From positions 51,860-115,859 of the IMG/VR virus record IMGVR_UViG_3300028115_000004: a DNA stretch of 64,000 bases; one strand, given 5' to 3'. The position numbers and the translations under genes were made by a program. The notes beneath the pieces were generated by a model. The model saw nothing but the letters and a program-made list of their open reading frames with translations. It made no database searches and was not told the origin of the DNA. Below, in pieces: positions 10,790-56,062 of the stretch. The number at the start of each line of letters is the position of its first letter. Position 1 is the first letter of the stretch. This stretch comes from a virus.

Positions 10790-11321
10790 GAAAAAGACTG
10801 GCAGTATTGATGACATTACGCCAGAACAATGGAATGAAATGAATCGTCTTCATCTTGAAGAGGTGCGAGACTCAAAAGAAAACGACAAAGTTGTGAATAT
10901 TGAGTATGACACGTGTAACGATATTGGGTTTCCGGAAGACACCTTTACTTTAAGTGTGGGTGACATTACGGCTGATTCCATTCCGTTCACACTACACACC
11001 GACGATACTGTGAGTTATACAATCAAAGAACCCATCAACTACAAGTTCAATGAAGGTGTGTTGATGGCAGAGTTCAAAGATTACATCGATTCGACTTACA
11101 GTGGTCACTATGGACAGGGTGGTTTACAGTCCTCTGAGATCATCGTAGATCGTGGTCATGGTATGGGTTTCTTCTCTGGCAATGTTGATAAATACAACGG
11201 ACGTTACGGTAAAAAAGGAGAAACGCCTGCAGACTATAGGAAGGACATTTTGAAGATCATTCATTATGGTTTCCTGATGCTGTACGAGCACGATAGAATT
11301 CATGGGAATACTACTGACTAA
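10776..11321 (+). CDS. DUF3310-like (T7 gp1.7-related) protein
   Basis: TYSGHY...GFFSGNVDKYNGRYGKKG...DILKIIHY. Confidence 0.6.
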   Translation: MAKDKKKTGSIDDITPEQWNEMNRLHLEEVRDSKENDKVVNIEYDTCNDIGFPEDTFTLSVGDITADSIPFTLHTDDTVSYTIKEPINYKFNEGVLMAEFKDYIDSTYSGHYGQGGLQSSEIIVDRGHGMGFFSGNVDKYNGRYGKKGETPADYRKDILKIIHYGFLMLYEHDRIHGNTTD

Positions 11322-12132
11322 TGGTGACAGTTTTACGTATGGGGATGAACTGCCGGGTTCTCGGACTTATGGAGAGGACGGTGAAACGGCTCTCTTCGAC
11401 TTAAATACACATCACCCCAAAACTTACACGTATAAACTAGCCAATCATCTTGGTGTTAACCACGTAAATTTGGCACATAACGGTTCTTCTAATCAAAAAA
11501 TTTTTAGAAGAACCACCGCTTTCCTGCAGAGAACTACCAAGAAAGTAGACTACATGGTAATCATGTGGTCTTCTTGGGGTAGGTTGGAAGTTTTCTCGCC
11601 CATTACCTATAAGAAAGATAATGAAATGTTCATTCAGGAAGAGTGTAATATGAATCAACTTATTCCGGATCACCATGATCGTGAACTCGGGTTTAATCTA
11701 AAAAACTGGCCTGAAGGTGGTGAGGTTGGTCAAGCGGTAGTAGATTGGTACACCAAAGTTTATACCATGTCGACTCCGATTCTACATCATCTCAACTACA
11801 TGTGTACTCTTCAACAGATCGCAGATTTAAAGGGTATCAAAATCATACAAACCGGAATTCATCATGGAAACTGGCAGAATGTGTTGAGTTGTATGAATAG
11901 AGCTAAGAATGATGATCGTTTCAAACCTTGGTTGGCAGAGATAGAATCTTGTTTTAGATACCTAAGACCGGAATGTAAGATAGGTTTTGGTGATAGACTA
12001 GATATGACATCTATTGCAGAGAGTCCAGATCACGAGGAATTTTTCATCTATCCCATGGGACATCCCTGCGAAGGAACACACACTTGGTATGCAGAGATGC
12101 TTTACAACGTATTTAAAGAGATGGAAGAATAA
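11302..12132 (+). CDS. SGNH/GDSL hydrolase-like protein
   Basis: GDSFTYG, NLAHNGSSN, C-terminal GHP. Confidence 0.7.
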   Translation: MGILLTNGDSFTYGDELPGSRTYGEDGETALFDLNTHHPKTYTYKLANHLGVNHVNLAHNGSSNQKIFRRTTAFLQRTTKKVDYMVIMWSSWGRLEVFSPITYKKDNEMFIQEECNMNQLIPDHHDRELGFNLKNWPEGGEVGQAVVDWYTKVYTMSTPILHHLNYMCTLQQIADLKGIKIIQTGIHHGNWQNVLSCMNRAKNDDRFKPWLAEIESCFRYLRPECKIGFGDRLDMTSIAESPDHEEFFIYPMGHPCEGTHTWYAEMLYNVFKEMEE

Positions 12133-12923
12133 TGTTATTGACCTGTGGTTGCAGTTTTGTTTGGGGAGATGAACTGGAAGGTTGTTACGATGACCCGCCA
12201 AATCATTGGAGACATACCTTTACCAGTCTCCTAGCTAAACGCTTGAGGGTGGATTATATCAATCTGGCCGCCTGTGGAAACGGAAACGATAAAATCTTTC
12301 GGGACGTTATGACCTATCTCACCGATCCGAATAGACGACAACCAACACACATGGTGATTCTCTGGTCTAGTTGGCAAAGAACTGAAATGGCCGAACCCGA
12401 CAATTCTCATCATGCGGGGAGAAATATCCAAAGGTTCGACTCAACATCACAGTTCTCACCTGAGAGAATCCACAACATACTTCCAAAGAAATGGGGTGCA
12501 GCTCACGCATGGTTTGATAGGGCATATGATGTCAGAACCGATATCTTGAGACAACTTCCTCTCATGATTGCCATGCAAGAAATCTGTGACCTACGAGGAA
12601 TCAAATTGATTCAAGGGGCATTCCACGATAGAATGATGGATAACATTATGTGGTCACTTAAGGGTGGTGATAGTGGTGATTTTGCGGCGTGGAATAAAAA
12701 GTTCGGTGATCTGTTTGGTAAGTTGCGAAGTGAGAGTAGAGTTGGTCTTGGTAAATATGAGACACTGAGATCAGTGAGCGAGAGGTTGAAAGACATCAAA
12801 CCTAACGCCCACCCTGGCGAAGCCTCCCACAGTGAATATGCGGGAATGCTTTATGGCATCTTTAACTCTTTTGAGATAATTCGACGATTCGACAAATCTG
12901 TTGTTTCTGATCATCAACCTTAA
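12132..12923 (+). CDS. SGNH/GDSL hydrolase-like protein (tandem paralogue)
   Basis: GCSFVWG, NLAACGNGNDKIFR, WSSWQR, HPGEASH. Confidence 0.7.
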   Translation: MLLTCGCSFVWGDELEGCYDDPPNHWRHTFTSLLAKRLRVDYINLAACGNGNDKIFRDVMTYLTDPNRRQPTHMVILWSSWQRTEMAEPDNSHHAGRNIQRFDSTSQFSPERIHNILPKKWGAAHAWFDRAYDVRTDILRQLPLMIAMQEICDLRGIKLIQGAFHDRMMDNIMWSLKGGDSGDFAAWNKKFGDLFGKLRSESRVGLGKYETLRSVSERLKDIKPNAHPGEASHSEYAGMLYGIFNSFEIIRRFDKSVVSDHQP

Positions 12924-13322: not shown

Positions 13323-13330
13323 TATAAATA
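13323..13330 (+). promoter_or_regulatory. T4-type late promoter
   Basis: Exact TATAAATA in the intergenic gap. Confidence 0.75.
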
Positions 13331-13365: not shown

Positions 13366-13920
13366 ATGCGTTACATAATTAGTTTTTGGATGCTTGCGGT
13401 GATATTAGCATCTACGGGGGTTCATGCACAGGAAGAAAATCCTGTTGAACCAATTGTTACTGAGAGTACGGTAATCACATCGGGGAAGTCTGAGACAACA
13501 CTAAAGTCGCCCCCTGCGTCTGCCATCTCTCCTACGATCAACACGTCTAACTCTGACCTATGTACTTTCGGAGTTGCGGGTGCGGTTCAGACTCAGATAC
13601 TTGGTATCTCTATGGGATCACAAGTAACCGATGAGAACTGTGAGAGATTGAAACTGGCCAAGACTACCTTCGATATGGGTATGAAAGTGGCTGCGGTTTC
13701 CATCATGTGCCAAGACCCTCGTGTCTTTGACGCAATGATGAATGCGGGAACACCGTGTCCCTATGACGGTATGATCGGAATGGAAGCGAAGGCTGCATGG
13801 GAGACTAATCCCGAACTGATGCCTGGCGCACCAGAGAAAAAGGAAGAACTGAGTAATGAGAACAAGACATTACTGGGCGGGGCTGGCGTTGCTACTCTGC
13901 TCTTCTTACTCTTACTCTGA
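13366..13920 (+). CDS. Exported Cys-containing protein with C-terminal membrane anchor
   Basis: Signal peptide ending VHA/Q; C-GVAGAVQTQILGISMG-C hairpin; C-terminal LLGGAGVATLLFLLLL. Confidence 0.7.
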   Translation: MRYIISFWMLAVILASTGVHAQEENPVEPIVTESTVITSGKSETTLKSPPASAISPTINTSNSDLCTFGVAGAVQTQILGISMGSQVTDENCERLKLAKTTFDMGMKVAAVSIMCQDPRVFDAMMNAGTPCPYDGMIGMEAKAAWETNPELMPGAPEKKEELSNENKTLLGGAGVATLLFLLLL

Positions 13921-14722
13921 GGAAGTCTACCAGTCTTCGCCTAACGCAGCCAATGCGGGGTTGAATTGGGTGATGACCAATATCCTGCCTCAACAGGCGG
14001 GACTGACAGTGAATGGTGTAGTATATCGATACACTGCTGTCAAGGATGCGGATGCGGACATGTTAGTCCATGTCCAGAACGAAGATGCAATCAATGGGGG
14101 TTACATCTTTCGTGAGACAGATGATTGGTCTGGACTGCCTGGCAATACAATTAATAAACAGGTTCCAGTTGCCAACATACCCATACAGTTTTGGGGTGAC
14201 GGGTCGATTGAAGTAGAAGGGGAAGGAAGTGTTGAAAACCCTCTCGTAATCTACAATTATCGATACGACACTTGTTTTGGCGTTACGGATAATCCGGAAT
14301 GTCCTGGCTACATGCCACCCGTTGCGATGCCTGATTTGACAGTGACCGATCCTATGGATGAACAATACGTCAAGGATGAGTTGGAGAAGAAGGCAGAGTT
14401 AGACGAACAAGACGAAGAAGATCGTCAACGTCGAAGAATGATGTCGTCGTCGGAGGAGAAGGAGGACAAGAGACTGGCTGCAATATTGGGGATCGTCGAT
14501 AACTCATTGTTGGCTGCAGAGAGCATGCAGAAACATGAAGAATTGATGGCAATGCAGTACATACCCTCTAGTTACTATGTCGAACTCCCTGACACAAAGT
14601 ATGAAGAAACGGTTGTTCTGAAGGACGCTGATCTGCCTGACAATAGAAAGGCACGTAGACAGAGTGTTTCTCAACAACTCTTACATCAAGAGTTAGTAAA
14701 TCTACAGTATGAAAAGAAATAA
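13856..14722 (+). CDS. Exported protein: beta-rich N-domain, Cys pair, acidic coiled region (adhesin-like?)
   Basis: Signal peptide MRTRHYWAGLALLLCSSYSYS; DTCFGVTDNPECPGY. Confidence 0.6.
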   Translation: MRTRHYWAGLALLLCSSYSYSEEVYQSSPNAANAGLNWVMTNILPQQAGLTVNGVVYRYTAVKDADADMLVHVQNEDAINGGYIFRETDDWSGLPGNTINKQVPVANIPIQFWGDGSIEVEGEGSVENPLVIYNYRYDTCFGVTDNPECPGYMPPVAMPDLTVTDPMDEQYVKDELEKKAELDEQDEEDRQRRRMMSSSEEKEDKRLAAILGIVDNSLLAAESMQKHEELMAMQYIPSSYYVELPDTKYEETVVLKDADLPDNRKARRQSVSQQLLHQELVNLQYEKK

Positions 14723-14747
14723 CAATTATAAAAACTAGGAGCAAGAA

Positions 14748-15245
14748 ATGAATAAAGCACTTATCCCTGCGATCATGGGATTAACATTTGCTGCCGCTGT
14801 GGCTGCTGAGATTCCGATTACCGGAAACGTAGAGTCTAAGTGTATCGTTACTACTGACGCCAACGGTGTTTATGGTAACCCTACGCCTAGTCTTCTGAGT
14901 ACAACACAGGCAAACGGTGGTGTAGAACCTGTGGTTCGTTACGATGTAATTCAGGCGGACTACTACAAGGCGTTGATCAGTGTACCAGACGTTTTCACAG
15001 AAAGCCCTGCACTGAATGATGTTGTCAACTGGTCTGGTGACGTTACGGTTGGAGAAGTATCTGACCCTCTTATGTCTGCATACGACAATGACAAACGTCT
15101 ATATAACAATATTACGGAGATTGATTTGACCGTTGCGGGAAGCACATGGTTTAAGATTTCTTCTGAAGCAGATTACGGATACGACAAAGCGTTCCCTGCT
15201 GGACAATACCGTTCGGTTGTGACTGCGGAGTGTATCGCAAACTAA
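14748..15245 (+). CDS. Exported fimbrial/pilin-subunit-like protein
   Basis: Signal peptide AVAA/E; N-terminal IPITGNVESKC; C-terminal FPAGQYRSVVTAEC, as in chaperone-usher subunits; ~145 aa mature. Confidence 0.55.
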   Translation: MNKALIPAIMGLTFAAAVAAEIPITGNVESKCIVTTDANGVYGNPTPSLLSTTQANGGVEPVVRYDVIQADYYKALISVPDVFTESPALNDVVNWSGDVTVGEVSDPLMSAYDNDKRLYNNITEIDLTVAGSTWFKISSEADYGYDKAFPAGQYRSVVTAECIAN

Positions 15246-15254
15246 GGTGACTCT

Positions 15255-15629
15255 ATGCGTTATATCATGACATTGTTATTTCTTTCCCTGTGTGGGTCAG
15301 CAATGGCCCACCAGTGGACACCCACCTATCCGAAGTTAGAACCTTCGTATGTGAATGGTGCATTGAAAGCAACAATGACGTTATTCAATAGTAGACAGGA
15401 TGTTTCCTATTACGAGATCGGTGTATTTGACGCCGATATGAAACCCGTGAAGTTTGCGACTGCGGAACGAATCGTTCAAGTCGGGTATCTACGAAGAATG
15501 AAGATTGATGTCTTCATTCGTGAACAGGACAGAAACGTAGCTGTATACATCTGTTCGAAATCCAAATTATTGAAGGGTGAGGGTACAGCAACTCTTATCG
15601 CTTCTAGAATATGTTCGAAGATAAAATGA
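15255..15629 (+). CDS. Exported PapD-like (Ig-fold) pilus chaperone-like protein
   Basis: Signal peptide SAMA/H; WTPT..., MTLFNSRQDVSYYEIGVFD, IVQVGYLRRMKIDVFI; C-terminal Cys pair. Confidence 0.5.
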   Translation: MRYIMTLLFLSLCGSAMAHQWTPTYPKLEPSYVNGALKATMTLFNSRQDVSYYEIGVFDADMKPVKFATAERIVQVGYLRRMKIDVFIREQDRNVAVYICSKSKLLKGEGTATLIASRICSKIK

Positions 15630-16102
15630 AACCAAGTAGATTTCTGTTATTCATCATTCTGTACTTTTGTGTAGGTTTCTACTGTGGTGCAGTGTATGGA
15701 CAATCAAGTTCACTGAACCTCGCACTACCGCAATCGCCACAGAGTTTTCAATCCGACAGGGTAAGAGCAGGAGACCTAGAATGTTCTGCGGCCATTGGAT
15801 CGTCTACCAACGTGGAGTTTGGTGTGGTGGGTATTCTGAACCAGAATGATCCTTGGGATCAATACCGCAACACGATGAACGTCCAACCCATCGACGGTGG
15901 GTTTAATGGTCTGACATACAACGACAACTTCATGAGAGACGTTGGCGTGTATGCGAAGATCACCGTTCCTATTGGTGCACCGAAAGAACGTCTGAACTGT
16001 AACGCCCTGTACAAACTAGAATTAGAAAAGAAGAGACTAGAAGTCATGAAGTTAAAACAAGAATTAAATGCGCTTCGTAACTTACAGTTCGAGGAGAACT
16101 AA
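15626..16102 (+). CDS. Exported protein with amphipathic beta-hairpin and C-terminal coiled coil
   Basis: Signal-like N-terminus; C..NVEFGVVG...VGVYAKITVPIG..C; LYKLELEKKRLEVMKLKQEL. Confidence 0.6.
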   Translation: MKPSRFLLFIILYFCVGFYCGAVYGQSSSLNLALPQSPQSFQSDRVRAGDLECSAAIGSSTNVEFGVVGILNQNDPWDQYRNTMNVQPIDGGFNGLTYNDNFMRDVGVYAKITVPIGAPKERLNCNALYKLELEKKRLEVMKLKQELNALRNLQFEEN

Positions 16103-16599
16103 TGTCAGACGAAGATAAGACTACAATCGAATTTGGGGGAATGTCATTTACTGGTGGTAAGGCGTTTGCTCTGGTAACCGCACTCTCTACACTCGGTGGT
16201 GCCGCTTGGGGTGGTTTTGAAATCTACAAAGACTATATGGATATGAAAGAGATTATCCAGAACATAGATACCACAGAGATTGAGAACAGAAACCAACAGA
16301 TCGAAATCAAGATGGATGAGATGTTGGCGCAAGTGAATCAGGCCATCGACTACTCACGTAGTATCAAGAATGACCTGAGAGACGACTTCAACCGTATGGA
16401 AGCGAATGTAGACCGAATCGAAGATCAGTCCCGTGACCTAGAAACTGAGGTTGAGGATATGATTGATCGTGCAGATGAACGTTTTGATATGAAGCGTGAA
16501 TCATTACAGATGGACACTGATAAGAAGATTGAAGCACTGGAGAAGAGACTGAACGATAAGATTCAGACGTTCCTAGATAATCCTCTTGCCGATGGTTAA
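16102..16599 (+). CDS. Membrane-anchored coiled-coil protein
   Basis: Hydrophobic AFALVTALSTLGGAAWGGF followed by ~120 aa acidic heptads. Confidence 0.7.
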   Translation: MSDEDKTTIEFGGMSFTGGKAFALVTALSTLGGAAWGGFEIYKDYMDMKEIIQNIDTTEIENRNQQIEIKMDEMLAQVNQAIDYSRSIKNDLRDDFNRMEANVDRIEDQSRDLETEVEDMIDRADERFDMKRESLQMDTDKKIEALEKRLNDKIQTFLDNPLADG

Positions 16600-16616
16600 A
16601 TTAAGGCTTGACAGAT

Positions 16617-17000
16617 ATGAATTTTCGTGTTATACTAACAGCTATCTCTGTGGGGATGCTGATTACTGGATGTTCGCTAATCCCATCTCGGTGGGATGAC
16701 AACGAAGCAGCCGGAGTCACCGATCTCTACAACTCTATTGTCACTATGGATTGCACTCTTCAACCTGTACTTATAAAACGTATGGTAGAGGATATTGACA
16801 AGAAGCACACGTGGGTGTTACACTACACCCAACTCAAAGGTACAAAGGACATCGAAAGTCTTCTATTGAAGATGGATGATACTATTGATGGAATGGTCAA
16901 GCAGGAAAAGATCAACCCTGCTTATTGTAAAATCAAACAAAGACTACTCACTGAACAGTCAGAGGCAGTCGCTGCAACTATTATGGGAAGATTCAAATGA
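16617..17000 (+). CDS. Lipoprotein
   Basis: Lipobox-like ITGC after a hydrophobic signal peptide (MNFRVILTAISVGMLITGC). Confidence 0.7.
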   Translation: MNFRVILTAISVGMLITGCSLIPSRWDDNEAAGVTDLYNSIVTMDCTLQPVLIKRMVEDIDKKHTWVLHYTQLKGTKDIESLLLKMDDTIDGMVKQEKINPAYCKIKQRLLTEQSEAVAATIMGRFK

Positions 17001-17261: not shown

Positions 17262-17329
17262 AAAAAACGCTTGACAAACTTGTTTCGACTATGAGATAAT
17301 ACGTATGTTGTCTGGGGAGAGGTTCCCCA
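17262..17329 (+). promoter_or_regulatory. Early sigma70-type promoter with A-tract and downstream stem-loop
   Basis: AAAAAACGC TTGACA(17271) ... TGA GATAAT(17295); hairpin TGGGGA-GAGGT-TCCCCA at 17313-17329. Confidence 0.75.
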
Positions 17330-17356: not shown

Positions 17357-18334
17357 ATGTCACATGAAGTTGAAACTATGGCCTACGCTGGTGCACTCCC
17401 TTGGCACGGTCTAGGTGTTGCGGTATCTAACGATCTGACTCCCCGTCAGATGATGCAGAAAGCTGGTCTTGATTGGACAGTCGAGAAGGTTCCTACCTAC
17501 GCACGTATCTATTCTGAGTTCGAAGGTGGAAGTCCTCTTGAAATCCCAACGGGTGTTGAAGCCCTTGTCCGTTCTTCGGACAACAAGGTTCTGACTCAGG
17601 TCGGTTCTGGTTGGAACCCTGTACAGAACGAGGAAGCGTTTGACTTCTTCGCAGAGTACTGTGCTGCGGGTGACATGGAAATGCACACCGCTGGTTCTCT
17701 GAAAGGTGGTCAGATGGTCTGGGCACTCGCCAAGATCAAGGAGTCTTTCGATATCCTTGGTGGTGACCAAGTTGACTCTTACCTTCTGTTCTCTAACCCT
17801 CACCAGTACGGTAAGTCGATTGACGTTCGGTTCACTCCGATCCGTGTTGTGTGTAACAATACTCTGACACTCTCTTTGGGTCAACAGGTTGCCAACTCTT
17901 GCAAACTGAACCACCGTTCAGAGTTCAACCCTGAGAAGGTGAAGGAAGCCCTTGGTATCGCACACGAGAAGTTTGCGAAGTACAAGGAGATGGCAGAGTT
18001 CCTGTCAACCAAGCGGTTCGACATGGAGTCTCTCATTCAGTACTACAACGAGGTGTTCCCACGTACCTATCAAGGTAAGAACCCTCCCGTAGTCAAGGAG
18101 TTCAAGGACTTGACCACCAATGGTCAGAAAGCGTTCGAACTTCTTGAGACGCAACCTGGCGCTGAGTTTGGGGAAGGTTCATGGTGGCAGGCACTCAACT
18201 CAGTGACCTACCTGACCGATCACAAGATGGGTCGAAGTGCGGATACCCGCCTCGCCTCTGCGTGGTTCGGATCGAACCAAACCCGCAAAGAACGTGCGGT
18301 TAACAAGGCAGTCGAGTTCGCAACGGCTGCCTAA
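17357..18334 (+). CDS. DUF932-family phage/plasmid protein
   Basis: PWHGLG, AGLDWTVEK, TAGSLKGG, TPIRVVCNNTL. Confidence 0.85.
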   Translation: MSHEVETMAYAGALPWHGLGVAVSNDLTPRQMMQKAGLDWTVEKVPTYARIYSEFEGGSPLEIPTGVEALVRSSDNKVLTQVGSGWNPVQNEEAFDFFAEYCAAGDMEMHTAGSLKGGQMVWALAKIKESFDILGGDQVDSYLLFSNPHQYGKSIDVRFTPIRVVCNNTLTLSLGQQVANSCKLNHRSEFNPEKVKEALGIAHEKFAKYKEMAEFLSTKRFDMESLIQYYNEVFPRTYQGKNPPVVKEFKDLTTNGQKAFELLETQPGAEFGEGSWWQALNSVTYLTDHKMGRSADTRLASAWFGSNQTRKERAVNKAVEFATAA

Positions 18335-54628: not shown

Positions 54629-55277
54629 TAAGTTATTCATCACTGGATGTGATGTAAACACAGAATGGCAACTCCCTTGGTTTTGGGACAACTTTCGTGA
54701 GACCAACAAGACCCCATTGAAGGTCATCGACTTTGGTATGTCCGATGAGATGCGTCAATGGGTTGACAAGGAGATTGGTGAGTCTATTCTACTACACACT
54801 CAGGCAGACGGATGGTTCAAGAAACCTTCTGCGATGTTACGTGCGTGTGAAGAAGCACACAAAGTCTGTTGGTTGGATACTGACTGTGAAGTTCTAGGAG
54901 ACATCTCCGACATCTTTGACCTGACCGTACCTTTCAAGATTGGTATGGTGGAAGATAGACCGTGGACTCGCAGACGTGGCGATTACGGTACATGGTACAA
55001 CTCTGGTGTTGTGGTTTGGGAAGGTAAACCCAATATCCTCCGTGCATGGGCAGAACAGTGTATTAGTGATCCTTGGCAGGGTGATCAGGAGACATTGTAT
55101 GCAATGATGGGTGGTGATGAGATTATGAAGATGTCAATCATAGAACCATTGCCGCATAAATACAATACACTACGACTAGATTATTTGGACAATACTGCGG
55201 TCAAAGACCCGTTAATTGTTCACCACACTGGTCAAAAAGGTAAAGACGTTATAAGGGAGCAAATGAGTAATGTTTAG
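54621..55277 (+). CDS. GT-A glycosyltransferase-like protein
   Basis: WFKKP, WLDTDC, YNSGVV, GDQE, YN, IVHHTG. Confidence 0.7.
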   Translation: MIDKLFITGCDVNTEWQLPWFWDNFRETNKTPLKVIDFGMSDEMRQWVDKEIGESILLHTQADGWFKKPSAMLRACEEAHKVCWLDTDCEVLGDISDIFDLTVPFKIGMVEDRPWTRRRGDYGTWYNSGVVVWEGKPNILRAWAEQCISDPWQGDQETLYAMMGGDEIMKMSIIEPLPHKYNTLRLDYLDNTAVKDPLIVHHTGQKGKDVIREQMSNV

Positions 55278-55677
55278 TAAAGTACTATTCGGCATTATCG
55301 TTGCGATGGGTGGAGTTGGATACATTTACTTCCAAACGACACAAGGACAGATCGCAGACCTTAATGCCCAACTACAGACGCAGGCAGGTGTAATCACTGC
55401 GTTCGAAACTCGACAGGCGGAACAAGTCCGTACTATCGAAGCATTGCAGAACAATCTGCAGAAGACTACAGAGGCACTCAACACCATGAGTACTCGTAAT
55501 CAGGAGATTGAAGCAGAGGCACAACGTTACCTCGCAATCTTCGCTCGACACAATCTGTCGAAACTGGCGGCCGCAAAGCCTGGTCTAATCGAAACAAGAA
55601 TTAACAAGGGGACAAGTGATGTTTTCAGAACGATTGAGCAAGATACTACTGATATCGACGCTATTGACGATAACTAG
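55270..55677 (+). CDS. i-spanin (Rz-like)
   Basis: N-terminal TM, long coiled coil, AAAKPGLIETRIN; overlaps a downstream lipoprotein gene. Confidence 0.65.
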   Translation: MFSKVLFGIIVAMGGVGYIYFQTTQGQIADLNAQLQTQAGVITAFETRQAEQVRTIEALQNNLQKTTEALNTMSTRNQEIEAEAQRYLAIFARHNLSKLAAAKPGLIETRINKGTSDVFRTIEQDTTDIDAIDDN

Positions 55678-56062
55678 TGGTTGTACTTCTCTAGGTTTCT
55701 CTTGGGGTAAGAAAGAACCGCCTGCTCCCATTCCGGTAGAGATTCGAACCGTCGAAATACAGATTCCGATCACACACCCCACCATGCCCCGTGCGATTCA
55801 GTTGAGAGACCCTCAGTGGTATGTGGTATCAGATCAGAACGTTGACACCTTCCTTGAGGATATCAAGAAGAGACACGAAGGACAGTTGGTCTTCGTTGCA
55901 ATGTCCGTTGGAGACTACGAGTTGATGGCATACAACATGCAGGAAATTCGTCGATACATAAACCAATTAAAAGAAGTTGTGGTGTACTACCGTACTATCA
56001 ACACAAACGATGAGGAAGAAAAAGATGGACAGGAGACAGAGAGCGATCCAAGCGGTTCGTGA
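55619..56062 (+). CDS. o-spanin (Rz1-like) lipoprotein
   Basis: Lipobox TSGC, Pro-rich segment, helical YELMAYNMQEIRRYI..VVVYY. Confidence 0.65.
   Translation: MFSERLSKILLISTLLTITSGCTSLGFSWGKKEPPAPIPVEIRTVEIQIPITHPTMPRAIQLRDPQWYVVSDQNVDTFLEDIKKRHEGQLVFVAMSVGDYELMAYNMQEIRRYINQLKEVVVYYRTINTNDEEEKDGQETESDPSGS

Follow-up and report, generated by a model that had tools for sequence, protein, structure and literature searches.

The closest described mechanism to the one considered here is that of the chaperone-usher pairs, namely SafB-SafA, DraB, Caf1M-Caf1, FimC-FimA/FimI, PapD-PapK, CfaA-CfaB and CsuC-CsuA/B. In the structures of PapD-PapK and FimC-FimH, the G1 strand of the chaperone lies parallel to the F strand of the subunit, and Caf1M and other FGL chaperones engage their N-terminal strand as well. 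Beta-sandwich subunits are joined by donor-strand exchange without an usher in the CanA cannulae of Pyrodictium and in archaeal bundling pili. An usher-less donor-strand fibre is likewise formed by TasA of Bacillus subtilis (PMC9674648). Pelagibacter phages carry operons for curli (type VIII secretion system) fibre secretion in the variable region between their replication and structural modules, for which 'sibling capture', exclusion and uptake have been proposed as purposes (PMC7029224, PMC9599517). In this study, we describe a cassette of seven genes, g1-g7, in a 64,000-nucleotide stretch of viral DNA (the window), which corresponds to bases 51860-115859 of the 115.9-kb IMG/VR record IMGVR_UViG_3300028115_000004 (completeness estimate 65%), and in which a pilin-like product, g3, is predicted to be capped by a single-domain PapD-like product, g4.

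An earlier note on this DNA, made from the sequence alone, had proposed that the block builds a pilus-like fibre or secretion machine in the envelope of the infected cell. The observation itself was confirmed and its interpretation was supported in part: the pilin and half-chaperone pair and its late, exported and conserved context were well supported in silico, whereas the fibre or secretion machine, its exit route and its purpose gained no such support, the predictions reaching folds and docking only. With moderate confidence, we favour a late-transcribed, Sec-exported envelope cassette in which g4 would cap g3 by donor-strand complementation, giving a periplasmic or outer-membrane assembly. 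Literature searches returned no paper in which a lytic phage has a module of chaperone-usher-like, PapD-like or pilin-like kind. The novelty claimed in the earlier note nevertheless calls for some restraint, pelagiphage curli being a precedent for fibre secretion encoded by phages.

The cassette resembles the pelagiphage curli operons in that both specify exported envelope proteins of lytic marine phages from the same genome region, but the curli operons have a recognisable outer-membrane pore and the cassette lacks one. Neither CsgG (PF03783) nor CsgF (PF10614) was matched in the genome, by which a curli reading of the cassette was ruled out, and curlin repeats were absent. TasA, CanA and the archaeal bundling pili, unlike the cassette, lack a PapD-like chaperone.

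The g1-g7 block and its export signals

The window carries genes for a family B DNA polymerase, UvsX, a gp41-like helicase, ribonucleotide reductase and many sugar and nucleotide enzymes, almost all of them on the + strand. The nearest cultured record to the helicase was Phage C48C1 (76%), followed by T4-like Synechococcus cyanophages (about 60%), neighbours which point to an uncultured T4-like myovirus as the source. A literature search with C48C1 as the term yielded no relevant paper. Near-identical DNA was present in several metagenomes and metatranscriptomes from salt marsh. Seven densely packed open reading frames (ORFs) occupy positions 13366-17000 on the + strand:

g1, 13366..13920, + strand: exported protein of 184 amino acids (aa) with a signal peptide, a highly conserved core of four Cys and a hydrophobic anchor at the C-terminus
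g2, 13856..14722, + strand: exported protein of 288 aa with a conserved N-terminal domain (C140/C149), an acidic linker and, towards the C-terminus, a helical region that is also conserved
g3, 14748..15245, + strand: predicted pilin-like subunit of 165 aa with a signal peptide and an Ig-like sandwich
g4, 15255..15629, + strand: predicted single-domain PapD-like 'half chaperone' of 124 aa with a signal peptide
g5, 15626..16102, + strand: exported protein of 158 aa with two amphipathic strands, a variable loop and a C-terminal coiled-coil helix
g6, 16102..16599, + strand: membrane protein with an N-terminal transmembrane segment that precedes a long coiled coil, and with a conserved end in NPL
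g7, 16617..17000, + strand: predicted lipoprotein with lipobox ITGC, accessory

Overlaps of 65 nt (g1/g2), 4 nt (g4/g5, ATGA) and 1 nt (g5/g6, TAATG) join the genes, and the remaining intergenic gaps in the block are of 9-25 nt.

Leaders, transmembrane segments and the lipobox were called using a hydropathy and lipobox script. The ORFs lie at the positions given in the earlier note, and the script agreed that each of the seven products has a signal peptide, transmembrane anchor or lipobox. N-terminal leaders were clear in g1, g3, g4 and g5, with predicted cleavage between A20 and E21 in g3 and between A18 and H19 in g4; the leader of g2 was weaker, yet conserved in its homologues. A second hydrophobic stretch forms the C-terminal tail of g1 (residues 168-184), g6 has a single N-terminal transmembrane segment (about 21-40) and, beyond it, an extended charged stretch of helix, and g7 carries the lipobox. 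Only 10 of the 96 non-overlapping + strand ORFs of the window have an N-terminal hydrophobic segment and five of these 10 fall within the block, and the clustering of leaders is therefore far beyond chance. Conserved cysteines are found in g1 (four), g2 (C140/C149), g3 (C32/C162), g4 (C100/C120) and g5 (C53/C125), as would be expected for periplasmic disulfides.

The alternative that these are cytoplasmic virion or assembly proteins, with hydrophobic N-termini arising by chance, would suit a block placed under a late promoter in a large structural-type phage genome, as virion genes are. We consider it very improbable, since the leaders hold their hydrophobicity and A-x-A-type ends across dozens of homologues despite sequence variation, every exported protein has conserved Cys pairs, the cassette includes one lipobox protein and two proteins with transmembrane anchors, and no match to virion PHROGs or viral structure models was obtained.

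Predicted folds of g3 and g4 and their docking

The AlphaFold2 model of g4, built on a 49-sequence alignment, had a predicted local distance difference test (pLDDT) score of 90.4. In a Foldseek search of the PDB the first 11 matches were all chaperones of chaperone-usher systems (DraB, SafB, PapD, FaeE, Caf1M and FimC), each aligned through the first domain of the chaperone, with E values of 2e-4 to 1e-3 and query template-modelling (TMq) scores of 0.50-0.63. An independent all-against-representatives structural alignment (VIA) returned SafB (Z 10.3, root-mean-square deviation 3.2, 103 residues aligned), FimC (9.9), CfaA (9.7), YadV (9.5), PapD (8.9) and CsuC (8.5), with MSP and ASH domains, which belong to this fold class, at Z 9.1-9.5. 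Foldseek and VIA thus agree on a PapD-like fold for the predicted structure of g4, which upholds the earlier suggestion of a single PapD-type Ig domain.

The mature N-terminus of g4 begins with an invariant His19 in the motif H-x-x-x-P, and the protein further contains C100/C120 and a conserved last strand, SRICSKIK; even the most divergent relatives hold the H-x-x-x-P terminus, the two cysteines and the last strand. In PapD, Arg8 and Lys112 are the conserved basic cleft residues which anchor the C-terminal carboxylate of the subunit. Candidate counterparts in g4 are R118, K122 and K124, located within the last strand or past it, and His19, which contacts g3 in the model described below.

For g3, the AlphaFold2 model had a pLDDT of 89.5 and left residues 1-31 unstructured in the monomer. 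The mature N-terminus (21-31) shows the alternation I22/I24/G26/V28, hydrophobic at 22, 24 and 28 with an invariant glycine at 26, and the C-terminal strand contains G152-x-Y154. The motifs quoted earlier as hallmarks of fimbrial subunits are indeed present, with G26, G152, Y154 and C162 invariant in 55 homologues; in the divergent g3-like copy of contig L077 the alternation is retained and Ala replaces Gly. The top Foldseek matches of g3 were CfaB, the PapG pilin domain, FimF/G, CsuA/B and Caf1, all weak (E 8e-4 to 3e-2, TM-scores 0.30-0.46). No Pfam match to g3 was found, nor any clear match of its model in the viral structure library BFVD. By fold alone, g3 is modelled as an Ig-like sandwich.

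Complex prediction was performed with mature g3 and mature g4 in three runs. The interaction prediction score from aligned errors (ipSAE) was 0.79 (0.77-0.81) against 0.00 for the best control, a mark attained by 58 of 80 solved complexes and by two of 110 mismatched pairs. The runs shared at least 98% of their contacts, with partner pLDDT of at least 89, and the prediction supports binding of g3 to g4. In the predicted interface, residues 29-36 and 152-165 of g3 meet residues 19-25 and 107-122 of g4. The best-determined pairs (157:114, 160:117, 162:119 and 164:121) keep a constant offset of about 43 between g3 157-164 and g4 114-122, so that the last strand of g4 runs parallel to the last strand of g3 in the model; g3:34 contacts both g4:117 and g4:119, and the model places the last strand of g4 between the first and last strands of g3. 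The g4 residues predicted to face g3 (I115, S117, I119, S121 and I123) are the conserved ones. The predicted topology is that of donor-strand complementation. The reading of g3 as a donor-strand-accepting subunit gained in this way from its free conserved N-terminal strand, its weak pilin matches in Foldseek and its predicted docking with g4. Residues 29-31 of g3 touch g4, and residues 21-28 lie outside the interface; the g3:g4 dimer therefore does not explain the conservation of the latter, on which the case for a possible later polymerisation of g3 chiefly rests.

The cassette has in common with the chaperone-usher systems Sec export and a PapD-like Ig chaperone domain, and g3 has in common with their subunits the Ig-like sandwich, the free N-terminal strand of alternating hydrophobic residues with its Gly, and the C-terminal G-x-Y strand. 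The modelled parallel arrangement of the last strands is also theirs, and the N-terminal strand of g4 contacts g3 in the model as in FGL-type chaperones. The cassette differs from them in that g4 has one domain and not two, has a mature N-terminus with an invariant His, and is encoded, behind a late promoter, in a lytic T4-like phage, where its companions are the unrelated g1, g2, g5 and g6. No usher-sized ORF was present in or near the cassette, and the Usher hidden Markov model (PF00577, about 800 aa) matched nothing in the 115.9-kb record or in five relatives (62-148 kb, one of them 87% complete), the incompleteness of the records leaving room for an usher elsewhere or for one of the host. 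The absence of an usher, already remarked on in the earlier note, was therefore upheld for this record and the five longer relatives. Lacking the second chaperone domain, the usher and membership by sequence, g3 and g4 are predicted to work like a chaperone-subunit pair without belonging to that family.

Gene distribution, companion proteins and late expression

An IMG/VR scan with g3 yielded 52 loci, in which gene order was checked by tblastn. The order g1-g6 was identical in every locus long enough to hold these genes, whereas g7 was found in 14 of the 52, at variable positions and directly after g6 in a subset only. The gene order implied by the earlier note is thus conserved for g1-g6 on 52 viral contigs and not for g7, which is accessory. 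The protein families are large and all unnamed, with 1369 clusters for g3, at least 7997 homologue clusters for g1, and for g4 220 clusters by word search or 170 clusters at 50% identity by full profile search of 1.84 billion representatives. Pfam gave nothing meaningful for any of the seven proteins, and in PHROGs the cassette proteins matched unnamed families only (g1: phrog_20531, E 3e-15).

No match to g3, g4 or g5 was found by tblastn in 50,697 records of cultured phages. A g3 profile scan of GTDB genomes gave eight hits, all on contigs of 1.7-28 kb in metagenome-assembled genomes (MAGs) of inconsistent taxa, and these were read as mis-binned phage DNA. The g4 profile had no match in 400 sampled genomes of one class (probably Gammaproteobacteria). 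One Rhodobacteraceae MAG held four separate contigs with a g4 homologue (L078, L080, L081 and L082); the bin is therefore contaminated by several T4-like phage genomes, and such hits are unusable for host inference.

Homologues of g1 occur in Pelagibacter, Roseobacter, Achromobacter and Ralstonia phages, including the pelagimyophage Mosig and HTVC023P-type phages. In the Pelagibacter podophage HTVC115P, gp54 is g1-like (48% over 150 aa) and adjoins gp53, the C-terminus of which is weakly similar to that of g2 (E 0.27), and gp49 is a homologue of g6 (33% over 156 aa, E 1e-24); the g1- and g6-like genes stand among small transmembrane proteins just past tail-fibre-like genes, and g3-g5 are absent. 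In Roseobacter phage CRP-810, gp53 is g1-like and gp51 is g6-like (E 1e-6). Together with the other g1 and g6 homologues, these phages suggest that g1, a large exported protein and g6 make up a widespread phage envelope module, inside which the g3-g4-g5 trio sits in these T4-like phages. On the divergent contig L077, g3-like, g4-like and g5-like genes lie together with the next genes on the opposite strand, which suggests a separate trio that is inherited together. The idea that all seven genes form one system was not sustained, g7 being accessory and g1 and g6 belonging elsewhere to a broader module without g3-g5.

Two further observations concern g6 and its neighbourhood. CRP-810 gp51 (L068:5387-5809) is annotated as 'lysozyme', probably wrongly, as it is a 140-aa protein with a transmembrane segment and a coiled coil, ending in NPLGR. 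In many relatives, g5 and g6 are separated by an additional gene (L001:7379-7846, L015:3652-4128, L018:7364-7834 and others), whose helical product of about 155 aa bears a C-terminal transmembrane anchor; the gene is missing in the window, where g5 abuts g6.

Searches with g2 in Pfam, PDB profiles and the ESM Atlas returned no relative, and its proposed role as an adhesin found no backing in detectable relatives or fold information. In g5, two conserved amphipathic strands surround a hypervariable loop closed by C53/C125 and are followed by the coiled-coil helix. No PDB-profile match to g5 was obtained, and the ESM Atlas gave only unnamed viral clusters without a structure model; by inference only, g5 is the best candidate for an outer-membrane partner (pore or anchor). 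The earlier pairing of g1 and g5 as related Cys-clamped hairpin proteins fell away, since hhalign of all cassette protein pairs found similarity limited to signal peptides, and the two are therefore not related.

The g3-g4-g5 trio also bears on a different product, a true extracellular fibre in which a donor-strand polymer of g3 would leave through an oligomeric pore made by the phage (g5, perhaps with g1 or g2) or be released by lysis, and would tether cells, virions or debris as in the 'sibling capture' idea for phage curli. Consistent with this are the free N-terminal strand of g3, whose alternating hydrophobic residues and invariant Gly the g3:g4 dimer leaves unexplained, and the co-inheritance with g3 and g4 of a g5 having two amphipathic strands, a variable loop and a coiled coil. 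Usher-less donor-strand fibres exist in TasA (PMC9674648) and in CanA, which aligned to g3 by VIA over 136-137 residues, N-terminal strand included, with Z 6.1-6.5, in the range of common folds; and pelagiphages have curli fibre operons in the same genome region. Nevertheless, no Usher, CsgG or CsgF match was found, g5 has no known relative in PDB profiles or the ESM Atlas, and the fold matches of g3 are weak. We regard such a fibre as unlikely. It also seems doubtful that lytic T4-like phages build an usher-less donor-strand fibre in which capped g3:g4 accumulates in the periplasm late in infection and g3 then polymerises through its N-terminal strand, across an oligomeric g5 pore or once lysis has freed it, into a pilus-like polymer aggregating cells, debris or virions. 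A classical extruded pilus is less likely than the periplasmic or outer-membrane assembly favoured here, which the absence of an usher makes the most likely product.

Two overlapping elements precede g1:

13323..13330, + strand: T4-type late promoter motif TATAAATA, an exact match, 36 nt upstream of the g1 start codon
13326..13361, + strand: 15-bp hairpin with a T-run from a terminator scan (RNA fold -21.6 kcal/mol, z -6.7)

The motif TATAAATA occurs eight times in the window against 1.84 expected, and 22 of 32 distinct relatives retain it, at a distance of 34-68 nt upstream of g1. The late expression put forward in the earlier note is supported by the exact match and by this retention. Two relatives, L044 and L039, have a near-consensus sigma-70-type promoter (TTGACA, 17-nt spacer, TATAAT or GATAAT) in place of TATAAATA, and the timing of expression may therefore differ between phages. 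The hairpin, whose 5' arm is overlapped by the late promoter and which ends 4 nt before the g1 start, is terminator-like for transcripts arriving from upstream. Relatives retain a hairpin upstream of g1 with altered arm sequences, which suggests covariation of the arms. In some T4 late genes, transcripts from the late promoter lack the complete hairpin and early read-through RNA is folded shut; the present arrangement of promoter and hairpin resembles theirs. Four salt-marsh RNA libraries include contigs that cover the block at an identity of at least 99%, some of them bridging g2-g5. The libraries were available as contigs only, which carry no strand, transcript start or level and in which uncovered parts are uninformative.

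Genes adjoining the cassette were also noted. Upstream are two paralogous neighbours at 11302-12132 and 12132-12923, whose products have an N-terminal G-D/C-S-F-x-x-G-D-E motif like block I of SGNH/GDSL hydrolases, no leader and no PHROG match, and which accompany the cassette in a subset of relatives. Just downstream, a gene at 17357-18334 (phrog_1221, E 2e-67, function unassigned) is preceded by a sigma-70-like promoter at 17271-17300. This gene lies on contigs that are several-fold deeper in all four RNA libraries, although contig depth cannot rank genes.

The assembly that may be formed and its meaning

Several points weigh against the reading of g3 and g4 as a complemented pair in a late envelope cassette. 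The ipSAE value measures how confident the model is in its own prediction, and it may stem from resemblance to solved pairs at the level of the fold. No Pfam match to g4 was seen even at E 10, PF00345 (PapD_N) was unmatched genome-wide, and the g4 alignment compared with 11 Escherichia coli K-12 chaperone N-domains reached an hhalign E value of 0.15, in register over 94 columns; no homology that can be detected by sequence links the pair to PapD_N or a fimbrial subunit family. The second chaperone domain is missing from g4, and in the 150 listed of its 170 clusters the lengths are 49-181 aa, none of two-domain size. The best VIA matches of g3 were generic Ig adhesin (MSCRAMM) domains, with SdrD at Z 7.8 and the PapG pilin domain at 5.4, scores which all fall, as do those of CanA, in the range of common folds. 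The RNA-library contigs, which lack strand and transcript start, are compatible with DNA carry-over.

These generic matches of g3 also suit a further alternative, in which the cassette encodes a lysis or egress accessory or a superinfection-exclusion envelope complex, the Ig-like proteins are structural and the likeness to pili is that of a generic beta-sandwich. Homologues of g1 and g6 near small transmembrane and tail-fibre or lysis-region genes in HTVC115P and CRP-810, where g3-g5 are absent, the tail-anchored membrane protein between g5 and g6 in many relatives, and a late timing that suits lysis are all in keeping with it. However, the phage has a spanin pair of its own:

55270-55677: Rz-like spanin with an N-terminal transmembrane segment and a coiled coil (phrog_739, E 3.5e-14)
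55616-56062: spanin lipoprotein with lipobox TSGC (phrog_812, E 9e-12), overlapping 55270-55677

Moreover, the cassette proteins match no lysis PHROG, exclusion genes are usually early and not late, and the specific parallel strand insertion predicted for g3:g4 would be left unexplained. We think this alternative improbable. A narrower candidate, that g6 and g7 are themselves a spanin pair, was prompted by their topology, as a transmembrane protein with a coiled coil and a small lipoprotein share the layout of the i-spanin and o-spanin of Rz/Rz1. It was ruled out because neither protein matches a spanin PHROG, g7 is not kept beside g6 and the genuine pair lies at 55270-56062.

The strand-complemented envelope assembly which we favour would be formed as follows. 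Both g3 and g4 would be exported through Sec, and their disulfides would form. The last beta-strand of g4 would then be inserted between the first and last strands of g3, aided by the N-terminal strand of g4, and cap the subunit. The product may be a periplasmic or outer-membrane-associated strand-complemented assembly, be it the capped subunit by itself or a short polymer linked by the free conserved N-terminal strand of g3, and it would act together with g5 as well as with g1, g2 and g6, envelope proteins of wider occurrence. Its purpose may be a change of the envelope near lysis, the exclusion of other phages or the aggregation of cells. We observe the genes with their export signals and conservation, the late promoter and the occurrence of the block in RNA libraries; the folds and docking are predicted, and we infer the polymerisation, the location and the purpose of the assembly.

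If this reading is correct, donor-strand complementation would extend beyond bacterial chaperone-usher operons in a reduced form that dispenses with the usher and has a chaperone of one domain, and its carriers would be abundant uncultured T4-like phages; the g3 family counts 1369 protein clusters and the g1 family at least 7997. The cassette would provide a minimal model of a half-chaperone capping a subunit, raising the question of how, or whether, subunits leave the periplasm, and since g1-g6 span only 3.3 kb it is directly testable by heterologous expression. With pelagiphage curli as the first example, it would also be a second one in which lytic phages remodel the surface or envelope of the cell late in infection.

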